Below, in pieces: positions 29,183-48,200 of a stretch of DNA of 64,000 nucleotides. Where the stretch lies: positions 142,205-206,204 of the forward strand of contig JBBQRF010000001.1 in NCBI GenBank assembly GCA_038215155.1, read 5' to 3'. The first letter of the stretch is position 1; each line of letters starts with the position of its first letter. The translations under genes were made by a program, and so were the position numbers. This stretch comes from Minisyncoccia bacterium (GTDB taxonomy: Bacteria; Patescibacteriota; Minisyncoccia; Phycocordibacterales; CAJBRS01). The notes under the pieces are model-generated. The model searched no databases and was not told the DNA's origin. It worked only from the letters and a program-made list of their open reading frames with translations.

Positions 29183-31666
29183 TTACTTTTTTCCAGCCAA
29201 ATTCTGCTGATGCTCATCTGTATTCTTCAGGCCGCAATTTTTGAATTTCTTGCCTGAGCCGCAGAAACATGGATCATTGCGGCCAATTTTATCTTGAGAG
29301 TTGTCCGGGATGGTATTTGCTTTCAATTCAATGATTGGTGCTGGATTCCCGACGGAAAACACGCCATTTCCCATATTAGGAATTGCTTCTAGGATGGATA
29401 GGTTAATAGAGCGCTGCATCTCTTTAAATAATTTAAGTCCTTCCCTTTTATATTCAACTAAAGGATCTCGTTGGCCATAAGCTCGTAAGTTTACTGAGCT
29501 CCTTGTGTAATCCATCACTTCTAAGTGATCGACCCAGAAGAGATCTATTGTCTGCATAAATATTCTTCGGATACCTGAGTAGAATTGTTCGGGCCCTAGC
29601 TCAAGTTTTTTCTTCTCAATTTTTTCTGCTTCCTCGGCAGTGGCTTCCTTTTCTATTTCTTGTAAAACTTCCTTTACAGCCATTTGATCCCCTAATAAAA
29701 TTTTACGCCGTCTTTCGTAAACCACTTGTCTTTGAGAATTCAACACGTCGTCATATTCCAAAACATGTTTTCGGGCGTCAAAATTAAAACCTTCAATTTT
29801 TGTTTGAGCATTTTCGAGCGCCCTTGTAATTAATCTATTTTCAATTGGTTGATCTTCCGGAATACCAAATCGTCCCATCATATTCTTAATAGTGTCTGTA
29901 GCAAAAATCCGCATTAAACTGTCTTCGAGTGACACAAAAAACTGGGTGGCGCCAGGATCACCCTGGCGACCTGATCGTCCTCGAAGTTGGTTATCGATTC
30001 GTCTAGCCTCGTGTCTTTCGGTACCTAAGACAAACAGACCACCAAGATCTTTAATCTCTTGGAATTCGGCGGCGCCCGGAGTGGCGCCGCCTAACTTAAT
30101 ATCCACTCCCCTTCCCGCCATGTTTGTAGAAATGGTCACCGCCCCTTTCTTGCCCGCTTCAGCAATAATCTCCCCTTCTCTTTCGGCGTACTCTGGTTTT
30201 GCATTAAGAATCTGGTGTTTAATTCCTTCTCTTTTCAAATAAGCAGATAGCAATTCATTCTTCTCAATAGAGACAGTGCCCACTAAAACTGGCTGACCAG
30301 TCTCATTTAATTCCTTAATTTTCTTAGCAATGGCAATGAATTTTCCTTTTTCCGTTTGAAATATCTGGTCATTTTCATCTAGTCTGACAACCGGCTTGTT
30401 AGTTGGTACTTCTATGACATCTAAACCATAAACCTTAAAAAACTCTTCGGCATTAGTTTTGGCCGTTCCCGTCATCCCAGAAAGTTTGGAATAGAGACGG
30501 AAATAATTTTGAAAAGTAATCGAGGCATAAGTGCGAGATTCTTTTTGGACCCGCACCCCTTCCTTCGCTTCAATAGCCTGATGAAGTCCTTCCGACCACC
30601 GGCGACCAAGCTGAAGGCGGCCAGTAAATTCGTCAACGATGATGATCTGATTGTCTTTAATAACGTAATCTTTGTCCCTTTCAAAAAGAGCCCGAGCCCG
30701 TACTGAAGTTTCCAAATGATGAACGTATTTAATTCCTTTTTCTGTATATATATTTTCTACTCCAAGTAACTTCTCGGCTAAATCAATCCCTTCTTCGGTT
30801 AAACTAATGGCTCGAAGTTTTTCATCCACTATAAAATGTTTCTCCTTTTCCAACTTGCGAGCAATAGTGGCAAAGGTGCCATAGAGATCTTCTGACTCAG
30901 TAGTAGGCATGGAAATAATAAGCGGAGTCCTAGCTTCATCAATTAAAATGGAATCCACTTCATCAACAATGGCGAAGTTATAGGGTCGCTGGCGGAGATT
31001 CTGAATATCATATTCGATATTGTCTCGCAAATAATCAAATCCGAATTCATTATTCGTTCCATAAGTAATGTCGGCATTATAGGCCTCACCTCGACTGACT
31101 GGTCGCAAAAATTCATAAACTATTTTAAAAGAAGCCACTTCATCCCGTTTTTCATCTAATTCTCGGTGAGCCATATCATATACATAAGAAGTGTCTTGAT
31201 TGATTACTCCCACGGTAAGACCTAGGAAGGAGTAGATTTCTCCCATCCATACTGCGTCTCGGCGGGATAGATAGTCATTTACAGTTACAACGTGCACACC
31301 CTTACCACTTAAGGCGTTGAGGTAGGAAGGTAGAGTAGCCACCAATGTCTTACCTTCTCCGGTTTTCATCTCGGCAATTTTTCCTTCGTGAATGATCATA
31401 CCTCCAATTAGCTGCACATCAAACGGTCGTTGCTTAACGGTTCTTTTGGCGGCTTCTCGGACTACGGCAAAAGCTTCCGGCAGCAAAGCTTCCAAGCTTT
31501 CGCCTTTTCCAATTCGTCCTTTAAATTCAGTGGTTTTCTCTTTTAAATCAGAGTCAGAAAGACTGCTTAGTTTTTCTTCAAAGGCATTAATTTCTTCCAC
31601 TCGAGGGGTGTAATTTTTCAGCACTTTCGAGGGGGAACCACTGAAGAGATTTTTAAGAGAAATCAT
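29183..31666 (-). CDS. secA: preprotein translocase ATPase SecA
   Basis: DEAD motor domains; C-terminal Zn finger CFCGSGKKFKNCG. Confidence 0.95.
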   Translation of the reverse strand: MISLKNLFSGSPSKVLKNYTPRVEEINAFEEKLSSLSDSDLKEKTTEFKGRIGKGESLEALLPEAFAVVREAAKRTVKQRPFDVQLIGGMIIHEGKIAEMKTGEGKTLVATLPSYLNALSGKGVHVVTVNDYLSRRDAVWMGEIYSFLGLTVGVINQDTSYVYDMAHRELDEKRDEVASFKIVYEFLRPVSRGEAYNADITYGTNNEFGFDYLRDNIEYDIQNLRQRPYNFAIVDEVDSILIDEARTPLIISMPTTESEDLYGTFATIARKLEKEKHFIVDEKLRAISLTEEGIDLAEKLLGVENIYTEKGIKYVHHLETSVRARALFERDKDYVIKDNQIIIVDEFTGRLQLGRRWSEGLHQAIEAKEGVRVQKESRTYASITFQNYFRLYSKLSGMTGTAKTNAEEFFKVYGLDVIEVPTNKPVVRLDENDQIFQTEKGKFIAIAKKIKELNETGQPVLVGTVSIEKNELLSAYLKREGIKHQILNAKPEYAEREGEIIAEAGKKGAVTISTNMAGRGVDIKLGGATPGAAEFQEIKDLGGLFVLGTERHEARRIDNQLRGRSGRQGDPGATQFFVSLEDSLMRIFATDTIKNMMGRFGIPEDQPIENRLITRALENAQTKIEGFNFDARKHVLEYDDVLNSQRQVVYERRRKILLGDQMAVKEVLQEIEKEATAEEAEKIEKKKLELGPEQFYSGIRRIFMQTIDLFWVDHLEVMDYTRSSVNLRAYGQRDPLVEYKREGLKLFKEMQRSINLSILEAIPNMGNGVFSVGNPAPIIELKANTIPDNSQDKIGRNDPCFCGSGKKFKNCGLKNTDEHQQNLAGKK

Positions 31667-31700
31667 AGAAAGATACTATAACATACAAAATTCCTTGAAA

Positions 31701-31781
31701 ACTCCGCAGAAAGCTCTGGGCGGAGAGTAAGACTTGGCCTAGCGGCCCGGAGCGCTCTCCGCCCAGAGCTTTCTGCGGAGT
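31701..31781. promoter_or_regulatory. 27-nt perfect inverted repeat (actccgcagaaagctctgggcggagag / complement) with 27-nt spacer, in the secA leader
   Basis: Direct reading; the arms are exact reverse complements. Confidence 0.5.
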
Positions 31782-31825
31782 TTGTGATGGGGTTTGTGAC
31801 ATTTTCATATCAATAAAAATAGAAA

Positions 31826-31854
31826 GCAAAAACCCCTCTTTCGAGGGGTTTTTG
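31826..31854. terminator. bidirectional terminator (cccctc-ttt-cgagggg flanked by A5 and T5)
   Basis: Direct reading. Confidence 0.55.
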
Positions 31855-31873
31855 CTTAGTGAGAAGAAGGCAA

Positions 31874-31966
31874 TTATCGTCGTCGTTTTGCTGCCTTCTT
31901 TGCCTTTCGCTTTGGAGCGGCCTTTTTCTTTGTCACTTTCTTAGCCTTTTTCTTTTTTGCTGCCAT
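31874..31966 (-). CDS. 30-aa Lys/Ala-rich basic peptide MAAKKKKAKKVTKKKAAPKRKAKKAAKRRR
   Basis: Tiny ORF below the ORF-track length cutoff, followed by the terminator at 31826-31854. Speculative. Confidence 0.25.
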   Translation of the reverse strand: MAAKKKKAKKVTKKKAAPKRKAKKAAKRRR

Positions 31967-32220
31967 AGTATTTTTTATCGTCTTTTCTACCTTCATTTCA
32001 ATTTGCTTTAAAGAACGCTGTGAGAATGAGATAAATCTGACGAGAGATTATTTTTTAATAGGTTTTCCGATTAAAAATTTTTCGACCCTATTCTTAATTC
32101 TGCCTAATCCCTTAAAGCAGGAATTAAAATAGAATTAAAAATTTTTATGAAAACTTAATATAATTATCTAATACCTGCGCTCAATTACAATGGTTTTATA
32201 AATTAAAGTGTGGATAAGTA

Positions 32221-32263
32221 ATTAGTGCGAAAATATTTTTCAGAAAAATATTTTCGCACTAAT
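32221..32263. promoter_or_regulatory. 43-nt perfect palindrome (20-nt arms around a cag centre): attagtgcgaaaatattttt cag aaaaatattttcgcactaat
   Basis: Direct reading; AT-rich, operator-like or a hairpin. Confidence 0.45.
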
Positions 32264-32444
32264 CCCGCCACTTCTAAAATTTCTTCGCTTTTTAATTTTA
32301 GAAACCTAAAAAAACATTTTAAAATATCAAATAAAAAATCCTGTCGATAAATGGTTAGCGGGTGCTAGCTCCAAAGTAAACATCTTATGTGAGTGCAGCC
32401 GCTAACCGTCCATTGACAGGATTTACTACCATTCTATCAGCAAA

Positions 32445-32474
32445 ACAAAAACCCCGTCAAAGACGGGGTTTTTG
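32445..32474. terminator. bidirectional terminator (ccccgtc-aaa-gacgggg flanked by A and T tracts)
   Basis: Direct reading. Confidence 0.55.
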
Positions 32475-32929
32475 CGATGTTTACTTTGTGGTGAGCTAAC
32501 CATTAATAATCAACTCTCACACGTAGGTCTACTATAGCATACTCTGCTCAAAAAAGCAACCACCCCCCCTAAACGACCTACTTGAGTTTGACTTTCTCTA
32601 TGACAAACCTTTATTATTCCTCCTAGATTATGAATCTTTCTCCTCCTAAATGCCGTAAGTGCCGGGACAAAGGCAAAATAGTGCGTGCTCGATCAACTTT
32701 TCCATGTGAATGCCCTTCAGTACTGACCGCAGAGTTCCCTTTTGCCGGTATCGCCGGGCCCATTACCGGAGCGGAAATTAAAAGACATTTCGCCCCTAAC
32801 TGCCCCCAACCTGTCTTTCTCGGTTTAAGAAGAATTCCAGTCGATTATTTTCGACGAAGGATTGAGGAAATTTACGGCTCACCTGCCACGGTGCCAGCTA
32901 GCAGCTAACCCCATCAAATTTGGTGGTTT

Positions 32930-33217
32930 TTATTTTGTTTTTAATTTTTTAATGCTAACCGAATTTGTCTTAGACGTATTCTTGATAAGCTTTAATTTCT
33001 CTTCTCTCCGCCAGCCTTTAATTTCATACTCTCTTCCTCTGGCTTCTTTTAGGGTATCGAATTTTTCAGAGTATAAAAGTTTGACCGGTCTTCTTATTTT
33101 TGTGTAATGTGCTCCTTGCTTTGAATTGTTATGTTGAATGAGTCTCCTTTCTAGGTCGTTGGTGCAACCTGCGTACAAACTTTTATCAGCACATTCGAGG
33201 ATATAGGTGTAGTACAT
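32930..33217 (-). CDS. GIY-YIG nuclease family protein (UPF0213-like)
   Basis: YYTYILECADKSLYAGCTNDLERRLIQHN GIY-YIG motif. Confidence 0.75.
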   Translation of the reverse strand: MYYTYILECADKSLYAGCTNDLERRLIQHNNSKQGAHYTKIRRPVKLLYSEKFDTLKEARGREYEIKGWRREEKLKLIKNTSKTNSVSIKKLKTK

Positions 33218-39305: not shown

Positions 39306-39321
39306 ATGCTTCCCTCGCCAG

Positions 39322-39394
39322 AGCCGGAGGCCAGAATTGAACTGGCGACCTCTGCTTTACGAAAGCATTGCTCTACCAACTGAGCTACTCCGGC
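39322..39394 (-). tRNA. tRNA-Thr(CGU)
   Basis: GCCGGAG-TA-GCTC-AGTTGGTA-GAGC-A-ATGCT-TTCGTAA-AGCAG-AGGTC-GCCAG-TTCAATT-CTGGC-CTCCGGC-T. Confidence 0.8.
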
Positions 39395-39442
39395 TCTGGC
39401 AAGACAATCGAGGTCGGGCCAACTAAAAAAGTTTAACACACA

Positions 39443-39708
39443 TGGAGCCGTTGTCCGGGATCGAACCGGAGACCTCTTCCTTCGTTTACACCTCTTTTTC
39501 AAATATATAAGAGGACTAGACTGTATCTTAATCCTTCTAAAGAAGGATTCCTTTGTCAGTCGTTCGAGCGTTTCAAAAAGATACGCTACGGTCTTAACCT
39601 AGGATTTAGGCCTTTAACCGTTATTGAGGATACACCCAAAGAATTACTTCTTTGAGGGGCAAATGTCGCTTTACCATGGAAGTGCTCTACCAGCTGAGCT
39701 ACAACGGC
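39443..39708 (-). tRNA. tRNA-Thr(GGU) interrupted by a 190-nt intron in the anticodon loop (CCA encoded)
   Basis: 5' exon GCCGTTG-TA-GCTC-AGCTGGTA-GAGC-A-CTTCC-ATGGT (39673-39708). 3' exon AA-GGAAG-AGGTC-TCCGG-TTCGATC-CCGGA-CAACGGC-T-CCA (39443-39482). Exon halves pair perfectly in the acceptor and anticodon stems. Confidence 0.7.
39483..39672 (-). ncRNA. group I-like self-splicing intron (190 nt) inserted after U36 of tRNA-Thr(GGU)
   Basis: 5' exon ends in U and the intron ends in G (omega G). Candidate P7 strands GACUGAC/CAGUC with an S-like UAAGAUACAGUCUAGUCC element. Hairpins consistent with P2, P5, P6, P8 (AAUCCUUCU-UUAG-AAGGAUU) and P9. Confidence 0.5.
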
Positions 39709-39735
39709 ATACTTTATATATGCTCGGTAATAATA

Positions 39736-40341
39736 TTATAAAGTTTGTAGATTTTCAATTGATTTATATAAAATATCGCGCAATTTTTTGTTATTGTAAT
39801 AGACAGTAACCACACCGTATTTCGATTTATTTTTATAGGTACCTGGATTTTTTGAAGGAGTAATTATTGTTTTATAAAACTTGTTTTTATCTACCTTTAG
39901 TTTCGGAAGCCAGTAATTAAATACTTCTTCCTCCGACAAATCATTAAAGATTTGCAATCCAAATCTTAATTTGTCTTGATCGATATTGTAAATAATTTTT
40001 AGAAAATCAATAAATTTTATAATCAGAGCAGGATCCGAATTTCCTAGTCGAATTGAATACTGGTTGCGTTTATTTCCTTCTCCCCAATAAAGTCCCACTC
40101 CTATTCCATACAGAAAGAACTCTGATATTTTAAAATTTTCTCTAATTTTAAAAGGGTGACCATTTGGGTTCCATTTTATATAACTGGCGTCAGAAATTGA
40201 TCTTTTTTTAATATTATATTTTTTTATCCAATAATTAACTTTGTTTTCCGAGCATCTCAATATTTGGCCGATTTCAGCACTAGATTTTCTCTTTTTATTA
40301 TAGAGATCTATTAAGGTCTCTTTGGATATTGTTTGCATCAT
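39736..40341 (-). CDS. HTH plus LAGLIDADG-like (homing-endonuclease-like) domain protein
   Basis: N-terminal HTH (SSAEIGQILRCSENKVNYWIKKYNI); motif FLYGIGVGLYWGEGNK followed by QYSIRLGNSDPALIIKFIDFLKIIY, resembling a LAGLIDGEG helix-strand core. Its stop lies 28 nt from the 5' end of the intron-containing tRNA. Confidence 0.35.
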   Translation of the reverse strand: MMQTISKETLIDLYNKKRKSSAEIGQILRCSENKVNYWIKKYNIKKRSISDASYIKWNPNGHPFKIRENFKISEFFLYGIGVGLYWGEGNKRNQYSIRLGNSDPALIIKFIDFLKIIYNIDQDKLRFGLQIFNDLSEEEVFNYWLPKLKVDKNKFYKTIITPSKNPGTYKNKSKYGVVTVYYNNKKLRDILYKSIENLQTL

Positions 40342-40452
40342 TTAAATTTTATACTTCTGACATAAAATTTATATAAAGAAACGATAAAGCCGATTTTATC
40401 TTTCATCCCCACCACCAAAGTATTTGGAGGATAAATAAAATATAATTAAATT

Positions 40453-41124
40453 ATGAGAATTTTAGTAATCGAAGATGATCCAGATATTGCCCTATTTTTG
40501 AAAAGCGCCCTAACGGAGGAAGGATTTTCTCTGGATGTAGCTATGGATGGTGAGCGCGGCTCCTACCTCGCCCGCACAAATGAATACGACCTGATTATTC
40601 TAGATTTTGTATTACCGAAAAAGGATGGCAAAACTATCTGTCAGGAAATTCGCAATACTGGAAATAGTGTTCCTATCATTATGCTCACCGTCCGCACTGA
40701 AATTCCCGACAAGATCAGCATGCTCCATTTAGGAGTTGACGATTATGTCACTAAGCCCTTTTCTTTTGACGAACTAGTGGCCCGTATTCGGACAATTCTT
40801 AAACGACCGCAGGTAATGATTAATAATCCTATTTCTTTCTCTACCCTTACTCTAGATTCCCAAAAACAAATGGCGTGGAAAGGTAAACAGGAAATCTACT
40901 TAACTCGAAAAGAATTCCAGCTATTAGAGCTCTTCATGAAAAATGCCGGCAAGGTCCTATCACGCGGCACTATCATGGAACATGTTTGGACTATTGATAG
41001 CGATCCATTTTCAAACACCATTGAGGCGCACGTTCTTAATTTAAGAAGAAAGATTGATACCGGACGCCAGAAGCTTATTCACACGGTTCCGGGCCGCGGC
41101 TATAAAATGGATATTAAGAAATGA
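40453..41124 (+). CDS. OmpR/PhoB-family response regulator (orphan, no kinase nearby)
   Basis: Receiver Asp pocket (LIILDFVLPKKDG) and winged-helix C-domain. Confidence 0.85.
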   Translation: MRILVIEDDPDIALFLKSALTEEGFSLDVAMDGERGSYLARTNEYDLIILDFVLPKKDGKTICQEIRNTGNSVPIIMLTVRTEIPDKISMLHLGVDDYVTKPFSFDELVARIRTILKRPQVMINNPISFSTLTLDSQKQMAWKGKQEIYLTRKEFQLLELFMKNAGKVLSRGTIMEHVWTIDSDPFSNTIEAHVLNLRRKIDTGRQKLIHTVPGRGYKMDIKK

Positions 41125-41554: not shown

Positions 41555-42373
41555 TTAACACACAAATTTACTAATTAATTTTGAAAATATCGAGAGAGGC
41601 AATATCTTTCTCATAAAAATAAGCAGTTTTGCAGTACCATCAGGGGTTCGTCTTAGTTTGTTTGATGAACCTGCCGCTTTATAAATTTCCTTAGCGACAA
41701 TTAAGGGGTCGGCTCCTCTTGCACCTATCTGATCAATTCTTTTTATAAACAATGAATATCTTTCATCGTATACTTTTAATTCTTCCGTCACGACAGATTG
41801 AATTTTATTTTCAAAAAATTTTGTTTTTATAGAACCGGGCTCAATAAGTCGTATTCGAATACCAAATTTAGAGACTTCCTGATACAGTCCCTCAGCAAAT
41901 CCCTCAAGTGCCCATTTTGAAGATGAATAGGCAGAAAAAAATGGCATAGACATACGACTGAACATCGAGGATACGAAAACGATCGTTCCCTCTCCTTTCG
42001 CTCGCATAAATGGAAGTACGGCACGAGTTAAACGCATGGCCCCAAAGAGGTTTACCTCAAATTGGTCTAACAATTGTTCATCAGTTAAAGATTCGAAAGG
42101 GCCAGCAAGCCCATAGCCGGCATTATTTACCAGCACGTCTATTGATCCCAAGTGTTCTATTGCTGCTTTGACGGATCTCTCAACCATCCCAGAATCTCGC
42201 ACGTCTAATTCAATTATTTTTAAATTTTCAGGTTTTATTTTTTTTAAATCATTGGCTTCTCCCGGAAGAACCGTCCCCACTACATTCCATCCTTTGGAAA
42301 CAAAATACTTTGCTGTCGCCTCTCCAATGCCTGAAGATATTCCTGTAATAAGGATATTTTTCATACAATTCAA
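41555..42373 (-). CDS. SDR-family oxidoreductase
   Basis: TGISSGIGEATA Rossmann motif; YSSSK catalytic motif. Confidence 0.85.
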   Translation of the reverse strand: MNCMKNILITGISSGIGEATAKYFVSKGWNVVGTVLPGEANDLKKIKPENLKIIELDVRDSGMVERSVKAAIEHLGSIDVLVNNAGYGLAGPFESLTDEQLLDQFEVNLFGAMRLTRAVLPFMRAKGEGTIVFVSSMFSRMSMPFFSAYSSSKWALEGFAEGLYQEVSKFGIRIRLIEPGSIKTKFFENKIQSVVTEELKVYDERYSLFIKRIDQIGARGADPLIVAKEIYKAAGSSNKLRRTPDGTAKLLIFMRKILPLSIFSKLISKFVC

Positions 42374-42390
42374 TAGCCCACACTATTATT

Positions 42391-42813
42391 TTAGCTCTGG
42401 AAATCAACCTCAAATGAATACATCCCCATTCCGCACGTCCCTTGCAAGGTAGCCAACTGCTTGTTCCCAACATCAACGTCAGTTGACCCAGTTTGCGGTA
42501 GTACCTTGCTTATATTCAAACTAGGAATTCGGATTGAGGAAGAACAATCAAATGTTCCGTTAGTATCAAATCGTATGATTGTAGGCAGTCCAGCTTTTGC
42601 GACACTCTTCTGTGGTTGGAAACCACCCTTAGCATTGATCGTAATGATCTGGTTGCCATCTATAACACTGACATTGTTTCCAGCCACCTGATTACCTGTT
42701 TGAGATTGAGAATTTCCTCTGGTAAATATGAATACTCCCCCGATGAGGACGACTGCTACGATGATTGATATGATGATTGTTTTCATGTGATTTTGCGAAA
42801 TCATGTCGCGCAA
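42391..42813 (-). CDS. membrane-anchored cupredoxin-like putative copper-binding protein
   Basis: N-terminal TM; C-terminal LQGTCGMGMYSFEVDF (Cys/Met-rich cupredoxin-like end); in the copper gene neighbourhood. Confidence 0.4.
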   Translation of the reverse strand: MRDMISQNHMKTIIISIIVAVVLIGGVFIFTRGNSQSQTGNQVAGNNVSVIDGNQIITINAKGGFQPQKSVAKAGLPTIIRFDTNGTFDCSSSIRIPSLNISKVLPQTGSTDVDVGNKQLATLQGTCGMGMYSFEVDFQS

Positions 42814-42855
42814 CCGTCCATTAAAGCGCGACTTGTTTATTATAATAAAATTAAT

Positions 42856-43887
42856 CTAAAAATTAAAGATTGGCGGAATAACTCCAATCACCACTAAACT
42901 ATTAATTAGGTTGAATAGGGCGAACATTATCACCACAAGTCCTGCACTTTTGAAAAAAATGCCAGCTTTTGAGCTATTTTGAATACTAAATGAACTGAAG
43001 CTGATTAATGCTAAGACAGGTAATGTACCGAGCGCGAATGCAAGCATGGTGAGTCCTCCTTTTAGAAAACTTCCCGTGCTGAGGGTGTAAAGCTGCATGG
43101 ACTGTGTAAATCCGCAGGGAAGAAAAAATGTGGCGATACCAACGAGCAGAGGCGTGAGGGTGTGATTGAATTTTGATACTCCATGAGCGTGTTTTGCAAT
43201 AAATTTAGGCATCGATGGTTGAAGTTTTTTCGCCCATGGAAAGACATCGAGAAGATTGATCCCGAGAATGAGCATGACAATACCTATAATTAAGCTGAGG
43301 GTAAATGTCGCAGAGGTATTGAGAGTAAATGCCGCACCTAACGCACCGATAACCCCGCCAAGTATAAAGAATGAGACGATACGACCCCCATGGAACATCA
43401 GTTGGGGTTTTATTTTATCCCCTTCTTTTGCAAAGGTGGCCGACATCGAGAGGAGAAGTCCTCCAACTACTGCCATACATGTGGAGAGTGAGGCAATGAT
43501 GCCAATGATAAATGCCGTGCCGTATGTAACTTTTCCTCCTCCGACTAAACTAATCAGTCCAATTTTTTGTAGAACAACAAACAAGACTGCGAAACCGAGT
43601 GCTATCGGAACTGCAATTTTGAAGTCAGTCCATTTTCTTTCTTTTACTTGTTTCTCAACTGAAACTGTATATCCATGTCGTTTGAGAGGAATGGTTAAGT
43701 CTTCTGCGATTTGTTCAGGTGTCTTATTGCCAAAATCTCCAACGACTTCGACAGAATGATTTTTAAGATTTGATTTAACTTGAGTGATATTCGAGAGATC
43801 ACCAAGCTCGCTTTCAGTCATAAGGATGCACGCCTTGCAGTGCATGCCGTGAACGTGGAAGGTGTATTTTTGTGTTTGTGTAGTCAT
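42856..43887 (-). CDS. heavy-metal-associated (HMA) domain fused to CcdA/DsbD-like transmembrane thiol-disulfide transporter
   Basis: N-terminal GMHCKAC metal-binding motif; TM Cys motifs SLSTCMAV and FFLPCGF resembling CcdA SPC/LPC. Confidence 0.55.
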   Translation of the reverse strand: MTTQTQKYTFHVHGMHCKACILMTESELGDLSNITQVKSNLKNHSVEVVGDFGNKTPEQIAEDLTIPLKRHGYTVSVEKQVKERKWTDFKIAVPIALGFAVLFVVLQKIGLISLVGGGKVTYGTAFIIGIIASLSTCMAVVGGLLLSMSATFAKEGDKIKPQLMFHGGRIVSFFILGGVIGALGAAFTLNTSATFTLSLIIGIVMLILGINLLDVFPWAKKLQPSMPKFIAKHAHGVSKFNHTLTPLLVGIATFFLPCGFTQSMQLYTLSTGSFLKGGLTMLAFALGTLPVLALISFSSFSIQNSSKAGIFFKSAGLVVIMFALFNLINSLVVIGVIPPIFNF

Positions 43888-43905
43888 AATGATTATGTTT
43901 TTTTA

Positions 43906-46308
43906 TTAAAGTTGCTTCGTCTTAATTCGCAGCGAGTTCGACACCACTGATACGCTCGAAAAGGCCATGGCCAAGCCTGCAAATACTGGATTGAGAAGCC
44001 AGCCAAAAATCGGATAAAACACTCCGGCGGCAAGAGGGATACCTACGATGTTATAGATAAATGCCCAAAATAGATTTTGTTTGATGCCCCGCATGGTCAT
44101 CTTTGAAAGTTTGATTGCCTTCACCAGTTTTGAGATGTCCCCACCGAGAAGAGTAATGCCGGCCGACTCTATCGCCACATCGGTTCCAGTCCCCATGGCA
44201 ATACCCACATCAGCTTGAGCAAGTGCTGGTGCATCATTTACTCCATCCCCTGCCATTGCCACAATTCGTCCCTGCGATTGCAGCTCTCTTATTTTTGCCA
44301 GTTTATCTTGTGGCAAAACATGAGCAATCACATCGTCAATGCCGACAAGAGACCCTATATACTTTGCTGCCTTTTCATCGTCTCCGGTAAGCATAACCAC
44401 TTTAATTCCGAGGGCGTGAAGATTCTTCACCGCCTCGACTGATTCTGTTTTTATCTCATCAGCCACCATGACAAAGCCGAGCACTTTTCCCTCGTCTGCT
44501 TCCGAACCAACGTGAGGGTGGGCAGGTTTCGTTGCGAGAATAACTGGAGTCTTGCCCTGCGAAGTGAATTCATCTAATTTTGTGGGATCAAAGGAAATCT
44601 TGAGGTCGGTAAGCATTTTTGTATTGCCGACAAAATATTCAATGCCATTAACCGATCCTTTAAGTCCCTTGCCTTGAATACTTTCGAAATTCAGAACATC
44701 ATACAAGGAAATATTTTTCTCTTCCTCCCTTACAGGATCTTGAATGTAGTTTATGATTGCGTTTGCAATTGGATGTTCAGACTTCTTTTCAAGAGATGCG
44801 ATTATCGAGATCAGTTCTTCATCCCTTTGATTGGAAAGGTTGACGATATCTACGAGCGTTGGTTTGCCGATAGTGATCGTCCCTGTCTTATCAACCACTA
44901 CCGTATTTACCTTATGAAGCTTCTCGAGAGTTGCAGCGTCTTTAATCAATATTCCTTCTTTTGCTCCCTTGCCAACACCGATGATGATAGCGGTTGGGGT
45001 TGCTAGTCCGAGAGCACAAGGACAAGCAATGACAAGTACTCCGACAAATGAAACAAGGCCGTATGAGAGTGCTTGTGAGAAGCCGAGTGCTTCGGTACCA
45101 AAGAAAAGCCATACTCCCAGTGCAAGGAAGGCGATGGCGAGGACGATAGGTACGAATACGGATGAAATCTTATCTGCCAGAGCTTGAATGGGCGCTTTAC
45201 TACCTTGGGCTTCTTCTACCATTTTTATGATTTGGGCGAGCAACGTTTCAGACCCGACTTTTGTGGCTTTAAAAGTAAATGACCCATTTGTGTTCATCGT
45301 ACCGGCCACAACAGAATCGCTAATTTTCTTTTGGACGGGCATTGGCTCGCCAGTGACCATTGATTCGTCCACGAACGATGATCCTTCGCTTATCACCCCG
45401 TCGACAGGAATCTTTGCCCCAGGTTTTACGATGATCAAATCCCCATGCTTCACCTCAACAATTTCAATCTCTACTTCTTTTCCATCACGAATGACGAGCG
45501 CAGTTTTTGCCTGAAGATTGAGAAGCTTTTCGATGGCGTCTCCTGTCTTTATTTTCGATCGAGCTTCCAGATATTTGCCGAGAGCGATAAAGGTGATGAC
45601 CACGATCGTAACGTCGTAGTAAGTGTGATTAACATTTATGTATGGGCGAAGTGCTTCTTCAAAAGCCATGACCACGAAGCTGTATGCATAGGCTGCAACA
45701 GTTCCGATACCGATGAGCGTGTCCATATTTGCTTTGCCATAACGCAGAAATCGATAGAAACCGAGAAGGTAGGGCTTTCCTACTACAAAGAGCGTATAGG
45801 TCGCCATCAAAGGTAGAAGGTGATGAAAGAATTCACTCACCGTATAGCTCATTGCGGGCACTGCTTTGTATTGAGCTAAAATATCCCAGCCCATGACAAA
45901 AATACTAATGATGGCAAGTGGAATAGCTGATATGACTTTAGTCCGCATATCTTTTACCTCTGCGAGCTTTCCATCTTTTGACTGATTGAGGCCGAGGTGG
46001 GCGGCATGTTCGTCGGGAGACATACCCATTTCTTTGGCTGATTGAGTGTGATTAGTATGAGGATTGCTTTCTGATAGAACGAGAGAATATCCTAATGGTT
46101 CTATTTTTTTTGAAAGCGCCTGAGCATTTGTCTTTGACTCATCGAAGCTTACCTTTGCTTTTTCTGTCCCATAGTTCACCTCTACAGACTGAACACCTTC
46201 CATTTTCTTGAAAGTCTTTTCAATAATCGAAGAACACGAGGCACAATGCATTCCTTTTACTTTGTATACTTTTGTATTCATATGATTTAGCAAAATCATG
46301 CTGGGCAT
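43906..46308 (-). CDS. copA: copper-translocating P1B-type ATPase
   Basis: N-terminal [12 protein letters not shown]; CPC motif [12 protein letters not shown]; DKTGTIT; HP and GDGVNDAP motifs. Confidence 0.95.
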
Positions 46309-46583
46309 TATTTTCTCTTAAGCTTATAGACTTTTAGGATCTCCTTTTTTGCTTTGTTTGATTGACCTGTTTTTAATTGATTAAGAATGCAGCCACTCAA
46401 ATGATTTTCGAGTAATAAATCTTCCACGTTGGATAGTCCCTGCTTGACTGCAGATGTTTGAGTAATCACATCAATGCAGTATGTGTCGCTTTCAATCATT
46501 TTCTGTAATCCCCTTATCTGACCTTCTATCAGTTTAAGTCGACGGATGATTCGACTCTTATTTTTGTCTCCTATATATTTCAT
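46308..46583 (-). CDS. csoR: CsoR/RcnR-family metal-sensing transcriptional repressor
   Basis: YCIDVITQ ... ENHLSGCI Cys/His ligand pattern; 91 aa; overlaps the copA start (operon). Confidence 0.8.
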
Positions 46584-46594
46584 TTGCTGCCATC

Positions 46595-46612
46595 ATACCC
46601 CCTAGGGGGTAT
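46595..46612. promoter_or_regulatory. putative CsoR operator: perfect GC-rich palindrome ATACCCCCTAGGGGGTAT overlapping a TATAAT box
   Basis: Direct reading, 12 nt upstream of the csoR start; matches the known CsoR operator type (TACCC..GGGTA). Confidence 0.6.
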
Positions 46613-46665
46613 AATGATCAATAGGAAAAAATAATAATAGATTGCGACATATTTTGGAGTCTCAT

Positions 46666-46700
46666 GGCTCCTTACCATAGAGTTAAAAAACTTCACATTG
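46666..46700. repeat. left inverted repeat (ggctccttaccatagagttaaaaaacttcacattg) bracketing the tRNA cluster
   Basis: The exact 24-nt reverse complement is found at 47319-47342, and a 17/19 match at 47281-47299. Confidence 0.6.
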
Positions 46701-46807
46701 TCATGATTTCGCGCCTAAAGGCTTGTTGCCATAGAGTTACTAAAGTCAAACGGTCGGAGCCGGCGTGGAGACTAAAAAAGAGCAGCAAAAGCTGCCCTAT
46801 TTTAGTC

Positions 46808-46884
46808 TGGCGCGGCCGACCGGACTTGAACCGGCAACCTCTCGCGTGACAGGCGAGTGCTCTAACCAGTTGAGCTACGGCCGC
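46808..46884 (-). tRNA. tRNA-Asp(GUC), CCA encoded
   Basis: GCGGCCG-TA-GCTC-AACTGGTT-AGAGC-..CTCGC-CTGTCAC-GCGAG..GCCGG-TTCAAGT-CCGGT-CGGCCGC-G-CCA. Confidence 0.85.
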
Positions 46885-46908
46885 AATTTCGCATTCTTAA
46901 AATACGAG

Positions 46909-46981
46909 TGTCGGAGGTGGGGATCGAACCCACGACCCCGGGCTTATGAGTCCCGTGCTCTACCGACTGAGCTACCCCGAC
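46909..46981 (-). tRNA. elongator-type tRNA-Met or tRNA-Ile2 (anticodon CAU)
   Basis: GTCGGGG-TA-GCTC-AGTCGGTA-GAGC-A-CGGGA-CTCATAA-GCCCG-..GTGGG-TTCGATC-CCCAC-CTCCGAC-A; the 1-72 pair is intact. Confidence 0.8.
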
Positions 46982-47068
46982 ATTTGGTTGGTTAAATATA
47001 TAGGAAATTGCTAATAAAATAAAGATACGTTATATTGGGTAATCTAATCAAAGAGTCACTATTTAAAT

Positions 47069-47130
47069 CGGGGGTGGAGTAACAGTAGCTCGCAAGAGAT
47101 CTATAGACTCATAACCTCTGATGGAGTAAG
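47069..47130 (+). repeat. partial or diverged duplicate of the tRNA-like element (shares GGGGTGGAGTAACAGTAGCTCG and CTCATAACCTC)
   Basis: Direct comparison with 47157-47227. Confidence 0.4.
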
Positions 47131-47156
47131 GTAAATATACATACAATTTTAAATAT

Positions 47157-47227
47157 AGCGGGGTGGAGTAACAGTAGCTCGGGAGGCTCATAACCTCCAG
47201 GCCTCGGTGCAAATCCGAGCCCCGCAA
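47157..47227 (+). tRNA. noncanonical tRNA-like element, anticodon CAU (possible divergent initiator tRNA or pseudo-tRNA)
   Basis: AGCGGGG-TG-GAGT-AACAGTA-GCTC-G-GGAGG-CTCATAA-CCTCC-AGGC-CTCGG-TGCAAAT-CCGAG-CCCCGCA-A. A1/A72 mismatch and A11:U24 are initiator-like; it lacks the D-loop GG and has TGC instead of TTC in the T-loop. Confidence 0.35.
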
Positions 47228-47280
47228 CAAGTTAACGCACATTAGAGTACTAGTGATTTGCACCGAATAATTGGGCAAAT

Positions 47281-47342
47281 AATTCTATTGTAAGGAGCCC
47301 TAAGACTCGAAGGTCGGTCAATGTGAAGTTTTTTAACTCTAT
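47281..47342. repeat. right inverted repeats (aattctattgtaaggagcc ... caatgtgaagttttttaactctat) bracketing the tRNA cluster
   Basis: Reverse complements of 46666-46684 and 46677-46700. Confidence 0.6.
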
Positions 47343-47516
47343 AAATAAAAACGCCCCTACCAATAAGAGGCGTCGATCCAGGCGCTGCGAATGGTTTTTT
47401 TGGTTAAGAGGCGGCGCGAAGCGCCGCCTCTATCTCCTTTCCAACAAACTTTGATCCAGGTAAAAATCTTCATCTGCCACTATTAAACCGCCAACCGCTT
47501 AAAATTCCCCTAAAAA

Positions 47517-48200
47517 TTAAATAAAACGAAATTCCTGGAATACGCTTTCGTAGAGACCAATTATCCGCTTAGCTTCTCGCTGGGAAAGCAGAAAATCAGC
47601 TCCCTCATGAGCAATGGCATTCCGAATTTTATGCGCTTCCCACGCGCTATCTATAGTACTAAAGTCGCTCTGTTCCACACTTTTTAACATATCTCCGATA
47701 CCCTCCCCTCGATATCCCATTGATTCGAGTAAATCACTAAGTAAAATATCGCCCTCTAAAATAGCTAAGCGCCAATCCGATGGATTATCGCTGTTTACGT
47801 GATTGAGCACTCGCTGCCATTTAATATTGCCAGCGGGTAAATCTTCAGCTGTTTTACTTAAATACTGGGCTTTTTCTTTTTTTGCATGACGGGCTTTCTC
47901 TACATATTTCAATCTGAAAAGAGCGTAGATTATGCCCATAAAAAACAAGACTGAACAGAAAATGGCTAGTAATTCTATAGTTGGAAATACACCCCCGAAC
48001 CAATTTGCTAATGTATGCCCAATAATTGAGAAGAATAAACCAATACCCCCTACTCCAGCAGCTCTATCTCCTCCAAAGTGAGCAGAGAAAAAATTTCCTA
48101 AACGATTGAGGATGAAGAAAAAGATGATCACTCCAGCAATTATTTCAAAGGCCGTAATAGCTTTGTCGGAACCGGCATCTTTTTTCTTATCTTCAGCCAT
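47517..48200 (-). CDS. membrane protein with C-terminal HEPN-like (Rx4H) domain
   Basis: Three N-terminal TM segments; C-terminal AWEAHKIRNAIAHEG fits the HEPN Rx4-6H motif. Speculative. Confidence 0.3.
   Translation of the reverse strand: MAEDKKKDAGSDKAITAFEIIAGVIIFFFILNRLGNFFSAHFGGDRAAGVGGIGLFFSIIGHTLANWFGGVFPTIELLAIFCSVLFFMGIIYALFRLKYVEKARHAKKEKAQYLSKTAEDLPAGNIKWQRVLNHVNSDNPSDWRLAILEGDILLSDLLESMGYRGEGIGDMLKSVEQSDFSTIDSAWEAHKIRNAIAHEGADFLLSQREAKRIIGLYESVFQEFRFI

Follow-up and report, generated by a model that had tools for sequence, protein, structure and literature searches.

The locus described here raises the question of what a small tRNA cluster is when it stands between perfect inverted repeats. 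The cluster lies between positions 46,648 and 47,342 of a 64,000-nucleotide (nt) stretch of contig JBBQRF010000001.1 (assembly GCA_038215155.1, Minisyncoccia bacterium), and this whole stretch is what we call the window. An earlier note, made from the letters alone, had described there a tRNA-Asp and a CAU tRNA on one strand, two copies of an unusual tRNA-like sequence with anticodon CAU on the other, and repeat arms on both sides. Three readings were offered for the full copy: a divergent initiator tRNA, a pseudo-tRNA, or the cargo of an invertible or integrative cassette. Our reading, to which we give a probability of about 0.6, is that the locus is a conserved initiator/Met (or Ile2)/Asp cluster of a Paceibacterota (Patescibacteria) bacterium, with a working initiator and a dead partial copy, and that the arms are private by-products of duplication and repair.

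The strand arrangement given in the note was borne out, ARAGORN and Rfam being in agreement on it. The features of the cluster are the following (L numbers denote loci taken from other assemblies):

46769-46808, minus strand: intrinsic terminator of the Met-Asp unit, with the stem at 46779-46798 and then a T-run.
46808-46884, minus strand: tRNA-Asp(GUC), with canonical GG D-loop and UUC T-loop (ARAGORN; Rfam, 71.7 bits).
46908-46981, minus strand: elongator-type CAU tRNA, Met or Ile2, with G1:C72, C11:G24 and an A31.G39 mismatch (ARAGORN; Rfam, 65.9 bits).
46995-47036, both strands: predicted divergent promoter region, conserved with L125, L122 and L127.
47000-46995, minus strand: -10 element TATATT of the Met-Asp promoter.
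47008-47036, plus strand: initiator promoter, TTGCTA, 17-nt spacer, TATATT.
47069-47119, plus strand: pseudo 5' half of the initiator, with the acceptor 5' strand, D-arm and anticodon arm, and no T-arm or 3' acceptor strand.
47120-47156, plus strand: duplicated leader, a second copy of the ~37 nt preceding the tRNA, which completes an 89-bp unit.
47157-47227, plus strand: initiator tRNA (tRNA-fMet, CAU; ARAGORN; Rfam, 52.6 bits).

From the promoter region at 46995-47036, shared by both sides, the cluster would be transcribed divergently.

Judged from its sequence and its conservation, the element at 47157-47227 is the real, working initiator tRNA of the cell, in a form that is normal for the lineage. 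Bacterial initiators are marked by an unpaired 1:72, G2:C71, C3:G70, A11:U24, G:C pairs in the anticodon stem and A73, and elongators carry Y11:R24. Both ARAGORN and the Rfam model RF00005 (gathering score 29) called a full CAU tRNA here, AGCGGGG-UG-GAGU-AACAGUA-GCUC-G-GGAGG-CUCAUAA-CCUCC-AGGC-CUCGG-UGCAAAU-CCGAG-CCCCGCA-A, with A1xA72, G2:C71, C3:G70, A11:U24, A29:U41, G30:C40, G31:C39 and A73. The CCA end would be added post-transcriptionally, because it is not encoded. The D-loop of 7 nt, AACAGUA, has A-G at the positions of G18-G19, and the T-loop, UGCAAAU, reads U54-G55-C56; the molecule departs in this way from the canonical elbow (G18-G19 with U54-U55-C56), of which C56 and one G are kept. 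All the peculiarities that had been listed for this copy (A1xA72, A11:U24, a D-loop without GG, a UGC T-loop) were thus legible in the sequence.

A scan with the pattern CTCATAACC-N8-12-GGTGCAAATCC was carried out over 185,579 species genomes, one genome per species. It returned at least 120 loci, which among the matches listed were mostly from Patescibacteria, including Saccharibacteria, Parcubacteria/Paceibacteria, Zambryskibacteria, Adlerbacteria, Berkelbacteria and others. We then considered a set of 79 genomes, mostly of Patescibacteria, built from CAU tRNAs that pass an initiator-type pattern and a stem filter. Position 1:72 was A.A in 46 of the 79 and C.A in 18; 11:24 was A:U in 75; positions 29-31 were AGG (AGG/CCU) in 60; and the D-loop was without GG in 75, nearly always with 7 nt (AGUAGUA, AACAGUA and similar). 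The class to which the window initiator belongs comprises 35 distinct sequences of 71 nt, in which all stem positions were paired in 100% of cases, with up to five pair types each, the D-loop A-R-N-A-G-Y-A and the T-loop UGCAAAU being essentially invariant. A.A or C.A was found at 1:72 in 31/35, and A11:U24, G2:C71 and C3:G70 in 35/35. Stems that are compensated around loops that are fixed, over 35 sequences, therefore indicate purifying selection on a working tRNA. The other four tRNAs of the window keep the GG and UUC motifs, and the change of the elbow is therefore specific to the initiator.

That this element might be a nonfunctional tRNA-like relic, with the true initiator encoded elsewhere, was also considered. 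G18 and U55, which are near-universal, are missing from it, only two of the three anticodon-stem G:C pairs are present and its Rfam score is the lowest among the five tRNAs of the window. Set against this, the same form with fully compensated stems recurs in at least 35 distinct sequences of many lineages, there is synteny in three relatives, and no second initiator-type tRNA was seen in the loci of the relatives examined; we find a relic barely credible. Of the readings offered in the note, then, "initiator" holds and "divergent" does not, the form being standard across the initiators of Patescibacteria, and "pseudo-tRNA" fits the partial copy and not the full one.

Regarding the structure, G19:C56 can still pair in the elbow of the Patescibacteria initiator, and an A18/G55 contact would replace that of G18 with Psi55. 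In the literature searched we found no description of an initiator with G55 or without GG, which is not proof that it is undescribed. CAU tRNAs with G55 and a GG-less D-loop were also seen outside the candidate phyla radiation (CPR), in Acidobacteriota (L003, L015, L016, L031, L051, L054, L056, L084, L098 and L107) and in Verrucomicrobia (L002, L006, L052 and L071); that of Acidobacteriota is near-identical in ten genomes and has an encoded CCA. That G55 and the loss of GG go together in unrelated lineages speaks for positions 18 and 55 being structurally linked.

Some further observations were made on the CAU tRNAs. In the 3' trailer of the initiator (47228-47233 in the window, and 31 of 79 other genomes) A73 is followed by CAAG, CCA not being encoded, and this conservation suggests a possible processing signal. 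The elongator-type CAU tRNA (46908-46981 in the window; L122, L125, L127; L057, L063, L066) has a conserved non-pair at 31:39, which is A.G in the window and A.A in other lineages, and G55 is present in it too in some lineages. At L055:7646-7715 the last 35 nt of the initiator, from the variable loop to the discriminator, are in perfect tandem, with CCA after the second copy only.

The position of the cluster was examined next to that of its relatives, L122/L124 (GCA_035652395.1), L125 (GCA_017881075.1) and L127. All three show ligA-gatC-gatA, a homologue of the gene for a 227-amino-acid (aa) protein, the initiator on the opposite strand and then the CAU tRNA and tRNA-Asp, and in each the ortholog of the window initiator has the same position and strand. 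The inner intergenic DNA, with promoters and leader, was homologous to that of all three (nhmmer E = 1e-13, 1e-6 and 8e-5), and neither arm region matched any of the 128 fetched loci at E<=10. Considering that relatives without the repeats carry the cluster at the same site, it is ancestral and not the cargo of a cassette; since the strand arrangement of the window is that of the relatives, there has been no net inversion. The cassette proposed in the note is not supported, as the same genes sit in the same orientation where there are no repeats. A second assembly, the Logan assembly of SRR19962015 (L001), was identical to the window over 46935-47520, right arm included, and in the same orientation. 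For the left arm no such support was obtained: the exact CopA and CsoR proteins had no record, and the contig with the response regulator ends inside copA.

The partial copy announced in the note is real. It agrees with the initiator over 22 nt without a mismatch (47071-47092 = 47160-47181) and, around the anticodon loop, at 13/14 positions, and carries a net insertion of ~10 nt, with the 12-nt CAAGAGATCTAT replacing GG; at E<=10 the Rfam tRNA model still does not match it. The initiator of L122 and L127 has a conserved promoter (TTGCCA or TTGCAA, 17-nt spacer, TATATT) 11-25 nt upstream, and in the window and L125 the same promoter is followed by ~30 nt, the pseudo 5' half, a spacer of ~37 nt and the gene. 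The spacer 47120-47156 resembles 47032-47068 (~53% ungapped), both ending in TTTAAAT before the acceptor strand. Because the spacer resembles the upstream leader, the simplest origin is an 89-bp tandem duplication of the leader and tRNA positions 1-43. The pseudo-halves of the window and L125 have derived characters in common, namely the insertion (CAAGAGATCTAT and CAAAGAACTAAT, respectively) and a change of AGGCTC to AGACTC, yet each carries the D-arm variants of its own genome (GUGGAGUAACAG vs GUAGAGUAGCAG; 22/22 and 19/19), which therefore speaks for one old duplication with gene conversion from the live gene. Gene conversion would keep the first ~25 nt of the partial copy identical to the live gene. 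The copy is still behind the ancestral promoter and would probably be transcribed into the pre-tRNA leader and removed by RNase P; if the two 5' halves recombined, the locus would return to the single gene of L122 and L127. By all these signs the partial copy is a dead 5' half, left by an old duplication common to the window and L125.

A different origin for this half was suggested by open reading frames (ORFs) of the GIY-YIG family which lie against tRNA genes in related genomes:

L092:1431-1706, minus strand: GIY-YIG ORF that runs into the tRNA and ends at the anticodon-loop TAA.
L069:553-810, minus strand: GIY-YIG ORF.
L055:7356-7556: GIY-YIG ORF.
L097:4353-4667: GIY-YIG ORF between the initiator and the repeated 3' end of the tRNA.
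L063:1862-2215: GIY-YIG ORF.

L092, L069 and L055 each show, one after another, a pseudo 5' fragment, then a GIY-YIG ORF (Pfam E = 1.6e-17, 3.1e-15), then an intact initiator, and all three ORFs that stand directly upstream of an initiator have this layout, the ORF beginning just past the pseudo anticodon loop and stopping at the TAA of the real one. The pseudo 5' half of the window could in this manner be the scar of a GIY-YIG cassette that was inserted with a replacement 5' half and later lost its ORF, and ATGGAG and ATGGAA are indeed seen at the same junction in the window and L125. The match to the start of the ORF covers few bases, however, and a 37-nt spacer resembling the upstream leader is the prediction of plain tandem duplication. 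We regard the scar as possible, although the odds are against it, and keep the tandem duplication as the origin of the half. The GIY-YIG ORFs themselves look like a cassette that targets tRNA genes and yet restores them. In the literature searched on tRNA-linked GIY-YIG elements in CPR we found nothing relevant; one paper on rRNA insertions mentions GIY-YIG and not tRNA.

A second kind of tRNA-associated DNA was found in the same genomes. Fragments of the initiator lie within 700 nt of the gene in 19 of ~120 loci; in most cases the fragment repeats the 3' end in direct orientation, 58-200 nt downstream, and the DNA between the initiator and this copy is a recurring element of ~145 nt, which we call R1. 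It runs antisense, in its 5' part, to the 3' third of the tRNA beside it (acceptor 3' strand and T-loop); inside there are a hairpin with loop AAACUGCUU, a GGAGC...GCGAG internal loop that looks like a kink-turn, by resemblance only, and a third hairpin; and at the 3' end the tRNA is repeated directly, from its T-loop on. RNAalifold gave compensatory changes at 25/32 predicted pairs. A covariance model found 22 copies in 100 loci, and nhmmer four more in L108, L120 and L122. All copies but one (25/26) are downstream of a tRNA on the same strand (Asp, Met(CAU) or fMet), 24 of them within 73 nt, and the one at 219 nt is the second of two tandem copies. R1 had no matching family in Rfam 15 and no copy in the window. 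Copies include:

L122:7109-7251: R1.
L058:4255-4402: R1.
L063:1715-1843 and L063:2283-2411: two R1 copies.
L091:237-379: R1.
L108:275-439: R1.
Other loci: further R1 copies.

In L063 and L090 a GIY-YIG ORF follows an R1 element. Taken together, these data lead to two linked claims, that Patescibacteria have an initiator-specific A18/G55 elbow and that the fMet-Met-Asp cluster is a hotspot for selfish elements which target tRNA genes and yet spare them, namely GIY-YIG cassettes that duplicate half a tRNA and the covarying R1; as a pair we put them forward tentatively, and would not be surprised to see them fail. If the hotspot reading is true, the pseudo-half of the window, its T-arm hairpin and perhaps the arms are decayed products of selfish events.

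The window also has a GIY-YIG gene of 95 aa at 32930-33217 (minus strand), beside an ORF-poor stretch of ~1.2 kb (31666-32930) with a long near-perfect hairpin at 31697-31788 and a lysine-rich ORF of 40 aa at 31874-31996; no Rfam family fits this stretch.

It was then necessary to account for the arms, which together with the features beside the right one are as follows:

46648-46701, plus strand: left arm, outer ~54-nt unit, with the small hairpin GGAGTCTCATGGCTCC and the 24-nt core 46677-46700.
46702-46755, plus strand: left arm, inner unit, the older of the two (72% identity with the outer).
47256-47280, plus strand: hairpin of an inverted initiator T-arm copy and a T-loop-like GGGCAAAT, then AAUUCUAUUGU (-9.8 kcal/mol).
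47273-47342, minus strand: right arm, ~1.3 units of the ~54-nt repeat, inverted, with the core 47319-47342.
47350-47374, minus strand: intrinsic terminator of the convergent 227-aa gene, abutting the right arm.

The repeats reported in the note were all found again: 46677-46700 is the exact reverse complement of 47319-47342; the partners 46666-46684 and 47281-47299 agree at 17/19 positions, within a longer inverted match of 32 nt and 84% (46654-46685 / 47280-47311); and the diverged direct copy is the pair 46648-46690 and 46702-46744, with 72% identity and a period of 54 nt. The 24-nt core has 2 matches in the window at <=3 mismatches, and two matches occurred in 0/100 shuffles. Going outward from the cluster, both sides present TAAYTCTAT, then 23 nt that include a small hairpin (GGAGCC-N4-GACTCC), then a run of ~22 nt that closes with ...CAATGTGAAGTTTTT, the series recurring every 54 nt; this makes 2 units for the left side and ~1.3 for the right. 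The right patch matches the outer left unit at 24/24 and 27/32 positions, ~90% overall, and the inner left unit, outside the 24-nt core, at 61%. Downstream of each outermost tRNA there is one patch, and both patches are oriented alike with respect to their tRNA; they read as an inverted repeat because the two outermost tRNAs point opposite ways. That the 24-nt core is a specially constrained site is less well supported than the ~90% identity of the right patch to the outer left unit as the explanation of the perfect run.

The arms lie in DNA that the relatives lack, which on the right is an expanded spacer and on the left the junction with a copper cassette. The right spacer measures 289 nt in the window and 42-79 nt in relatives, and between the right arm and the 227-aa gene two terminator-like hairpins, at 47364-47375 and 47405-47416, share TAAGAGGCG; given the shared hairpin sequence and the long spacer, local duplication has enlarged the right side as well. 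A 12/12 inverted copy of the initiator T-arm (47255-47266; p ~0.03) lies between the initiator and the right patch, and inverted T-arm fragments occur at the same relative position in L079, L086 and L116. The hairpin 47256-47280 may, as predicted by folding, be a weak terminator for the initiator transcript. We favour the reading that the arms are by-products of duplication and repair at a rearrangement hotspot flanking tRNAs, and not the ends of a cassette.

Several other candidates for the arms were discarded. Apart from the T-arm match and one with tRNA-Asp, local alignments with shuffle controls gave p > 0.3 for a derivation from tRNAs or the pseudo-half; the tRNA-Asp match, between the tRNA-proximal end of the left arm (46740-46768) and the reverse complement of the tRNA-Asp 3' end, is heavily gapped and, at p ~0.05, not convincing. 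The hairpin of the unit, seen by eye as a copy of the initiator anticodon arm, failed the alignment/shuffle test. As structured RNA the arms gave fold z-scores of -0.7 to -1.4 on either strand and no notable Rfam match at E<=10. Membership of R1 was negative with MAFFT, nhmmer and an unfiltered covariance-model search; the R1 model (12 members), run with filters off over the whole window, had its best score, 10.7 bits (E = 0.04), in coding DNA and none at the arms. A transposon or miniature inverted-repeat transposable element was rejected too: the outer flanks, ...CTCCTTACC and AAATAAAAA..., share no direct repeat that would be a target-site duplication, the relatives have no empty site, and no further copies were found in the window, in viral or metagenome data or in the 128 loci. 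Public data returned 0 matches, viral contigs having been searched with the exact 24-mer and metagenome contigs with a 21-mer core and with a degenerate pattern of the unit, 21 bases long. As to the noise of the type of repetitive extragenic palindromes, by which the note thought its proposal might be undone, no third copy was seen in the window at word sizes down to 7.

The arms might still be copies of a small non-coding mobile element, specific to the lineage and occupying the niche of R1, which inserts at or after tRNA 3' ends in a fixed orientation; the inverted repeat would be a side effect of two insertions beside divergent tRNAs. The placement of both arms downstream of tRNAs with equal relative orientation agrees with this, as does the inverted 12/12 T-arm copy before the right arm, which is like the start of R1-type elements, and R1 is found at exactly these positions in relatives (after Asp in L122; after fMet in L063, L079, L092 and L108). 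Against it, the R1 model is silent at the arms, neither arm has an nhmmer homologue in the 128 loci or a directly repeated tRNA 3' end after it, the third copy is missing from the 64 kb as from the viral and metagenome scans, and the left flank has only its marginal resemblance to tRNA-Asp. We think such an element unlikely, and prefer the by-products of duplication.

Taking into account that perfect 24-nt inverted sites surround a promoter-bearing segment of 618 bp, it was also asked whether 46701-47318 could be invertible, a flip aiming the initiator unit at csoR-copA and giving phase-variable copper resistance. The initiator unit has only a weak hairpin before the arm, and the Met-Asp unit, which now faces csoR, is strongly terminated, as this idea would have it. 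Nevertheless, the orientation is that of the three relatives, and the sole other assembly crosses the right arm in the same one; the core is without dyad symmetry; and the arms are patches of tandem repeat, not discrete sites. A search for a recombinase with phmmer, using approximate Hin and XerD queries against all six-frame ORFs of the window, gave no match, its sensitivity being limited, and there was none among the Pfam-annotated genes of neighbouring Logan contigs or among the seven left-flank ORFs of the window that the Pfam scan covered. An invertible segment is thus very improbable, and these same absences, of target-site duplication, detectable recombinase and dyad symmetry, count against the cassette of the note in general.

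The last possibility was that the arms have a function in cis at the borders of the cluster, as sites for a regulator or nucleoid protein or as signals for termination or processing. The two sides are ~90% alike with a perfect stretch of 24 nt, each unit has a promoter-like TTSGAG-N18-TAGART and a small hairpin, and the core, read outward, contains a T6 run. However, the relatives lack the arms, although they conserve the cluster as well as its promoters and the neighbouring regulator; folding is no better than in shuffled sequence; no hairpin comes directly before the T-run; and the promoter-like motif is directed antisense into the tRNA genes. Functional elements of this kind appear improbable to us, and rearrangement debris remains the favoured reading.

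Some points weigh against our reading of the locus. The window initiator has two and not three consecutive anticodon-stem G:C pairs, with A29:U41 in the third place, and the scan behind the count of at least 120 loci demanded G55, from which the frequency of this form among all Patescibacteria initiators is not derivable. The pseudo-half has outlasted the divergence of lineages whose flanking protein is 54% identical, a long time for neutral DNA, and it may have a role in the leader. In a 63-nt register the perfect run of 24 nt is unexpected (permutation p = 0.003), an effect which vanishes in the register of the tandem unit; the ~90% identity of the two patches could reflect selection for a binding site; and copies were searched for in the 64-kb window of this genome, so more may exist elsewhere in it.

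As for the surroundings, the best named homologues of the 227-aa flanking protein come from Candidatus Paceibacterota / Parcubacteria, with an identity of 63% for the closest. To the right of the cluster are gatA, gatC, ligA and pilin / type II secretion genes. On the left are csoR with an operator palindrome, copA, an HMA/DsbD protein, a cupredoxin, a short-chain dehydrogenase/reductase (SDR), a glyoxalase and an OmpR-type response regulator. The features of this side are:

41555-46583, minus strand: copper-resistance cassette csoR-copA-HMA/DsbD-cupredoxin with an SDR gene (Pfam), between tRNA-Asp and the glyoxalase/response-regulator pair.
46591-46621, minus strand: csoR promoter, TTGATC, 18-nt spacer, TATGAT, overlapping the operator palindrome ATACCCCCTAGGGGGTAT.

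In the relatives, tRNA-Asp is followed by a spot of variable content, beyond which come the response regulator, two tRNA-Thr genes, prfB, ftsE and ftsX. The variable spot is empty in L127, where tRNA-Asp abuts the regulator; it holds Band_7 and a glyoxalase in L122 and a toxin-antitoxin pair with a synthetase-like gene in L125, and in the window the copper cassette and SDR gene beside the shared glyoxalase. With regard to a tRNA-integrated island, the cargo downstream of tRNA-Asp does vary between relatives, and in the window no integrase was detected and no repeat of the tRNA-Asp 3' end was found. Between the response regulator and prfB the relatives carry tRNA-Thr(GGU) and tRNA-Thr(CGU) side by side; in the window (39321-40453) there is only tRNA-Thr(CGU), with an ORF of 201 aa of no known family in between.

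The csoR-copA-HMA/DsbD-cupredoxin module was found also at an unrelated locus in L130, and many Patescibacteria have a CsoR of 85-91% identity, a value well beyond the 63% of the 227-aa protein beside the cluster. This points to a mobile copper module that has probably spread horizontally among Patescibacteria. The csoR operator ATACCCCCTAGGGGGTAT is of the textbook CsoR type and is predicted to lie over the promoter of the cassette; the csoR cassettes of L130, L131 and L132 have both operator and promoter in conserved form, and the homology ends at ~46625-46640. Since it stops short of the left arm, the arm is not part of the cassette, and we ruled out that origin for the arms on the basis of these three other cassettes.

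Taking everything into account, the CAU gene at 47157-47227 should be annotated as tRNA-fMet and the fragment upstream as a pseudogene. The whole superphylum appears to initiate translation on a tRNA without G18 or U55, while its elongators keep both, and the universality of the G18-Psi55 contact and of a TruB/TrmA-type modification of the initiator is thereby questioned. It is at the flanks of the tRNA cluster that these small genomes take up and lose cargo, in this case a copper cassette, and that tRNA fragments and repeats pile up.

The locus was finally compared with known systems. Invertible switches (Hin/hix, Fim, Bacteroides invertons) have short inverted repeats around a promoter-bearing segment of a few hundred bp, and hix, gix and Fim-type sites have dyad symmetry. 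The window is similar in its short inverted repeats and in the size and promoter content of the segment, and differs in that no recombinase was found, dyad symmetry is absent, one orientation is seen and an ancestral tRNA cluster is inside. The tandem interspaced guide RNA (TIGR) arrays of Patescibacteria are long, have units that give 36-nt RNAs and adjoin a Tas gene with a Nop domain (PMC12045711). Like them, the arms belong to a CPR genome and are short repeats in tandem that have small stem-loops; with two units of 54 nt, the wrong size and copy number, and no neighbouring Tas gene, we did not accept them as a TIGR array.

The initiator resembles that of E. coli (metZ/metY) in CAU, the unpaired 1x72, G2:C71, C3:G70, A11:U24, G30:C40, G31:C39 and A73, with a nearly identical acceptor stem, xGCGGGG. 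It is unlike it in having A1xA72 and not C1xA72, A29:U41 in place of G:C, no encoded CCA, a D-loop of 7 nt with A-G for G18-G19, and G55 for U/Psi55. Natural initiators with fewer than three anticodon-stem G:C pairs, in Mycoplasma and some Rhizobiales, have reportedly been described by the Varshney laboratory, and the window initiator breaks the three-G:C rule in the same way. Those of Mycoplasma and Rhizobiales are not known to depart from the canonical GG / T-Psi-C elbow, and that of the window does. The initiator tRNA of eukaryotes has an initiator-specific T-loop, with A54 instead of U54 (PMC7912444). There, as here, the non-standard T-loop is confined to the initiator and the elongators are canonical; the position is 55 in the window, not 54 or 60, G18 is also lost, and the domain of life is another.

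With regard to elements that target tRNA genes, phage T4 SegB is a GIY-YIG homing endonuclease in a tRNA cluster (PMC2330249). Unlike the elements of this group (integrases with their attL/attR repeats, SegB), the window locus has no integrase, GIY-YIG ORF or direct repeat of a tRNA 3' end around the copper cassette, and its duplicated piece is a 5' half only 89 bp from the gene. Like them, it has a partial tRNA copy by an intact gene and variable cargo downstream, and in the related genomes GIY-YIG ORFs are placed between a tRNA fragment and the gene.

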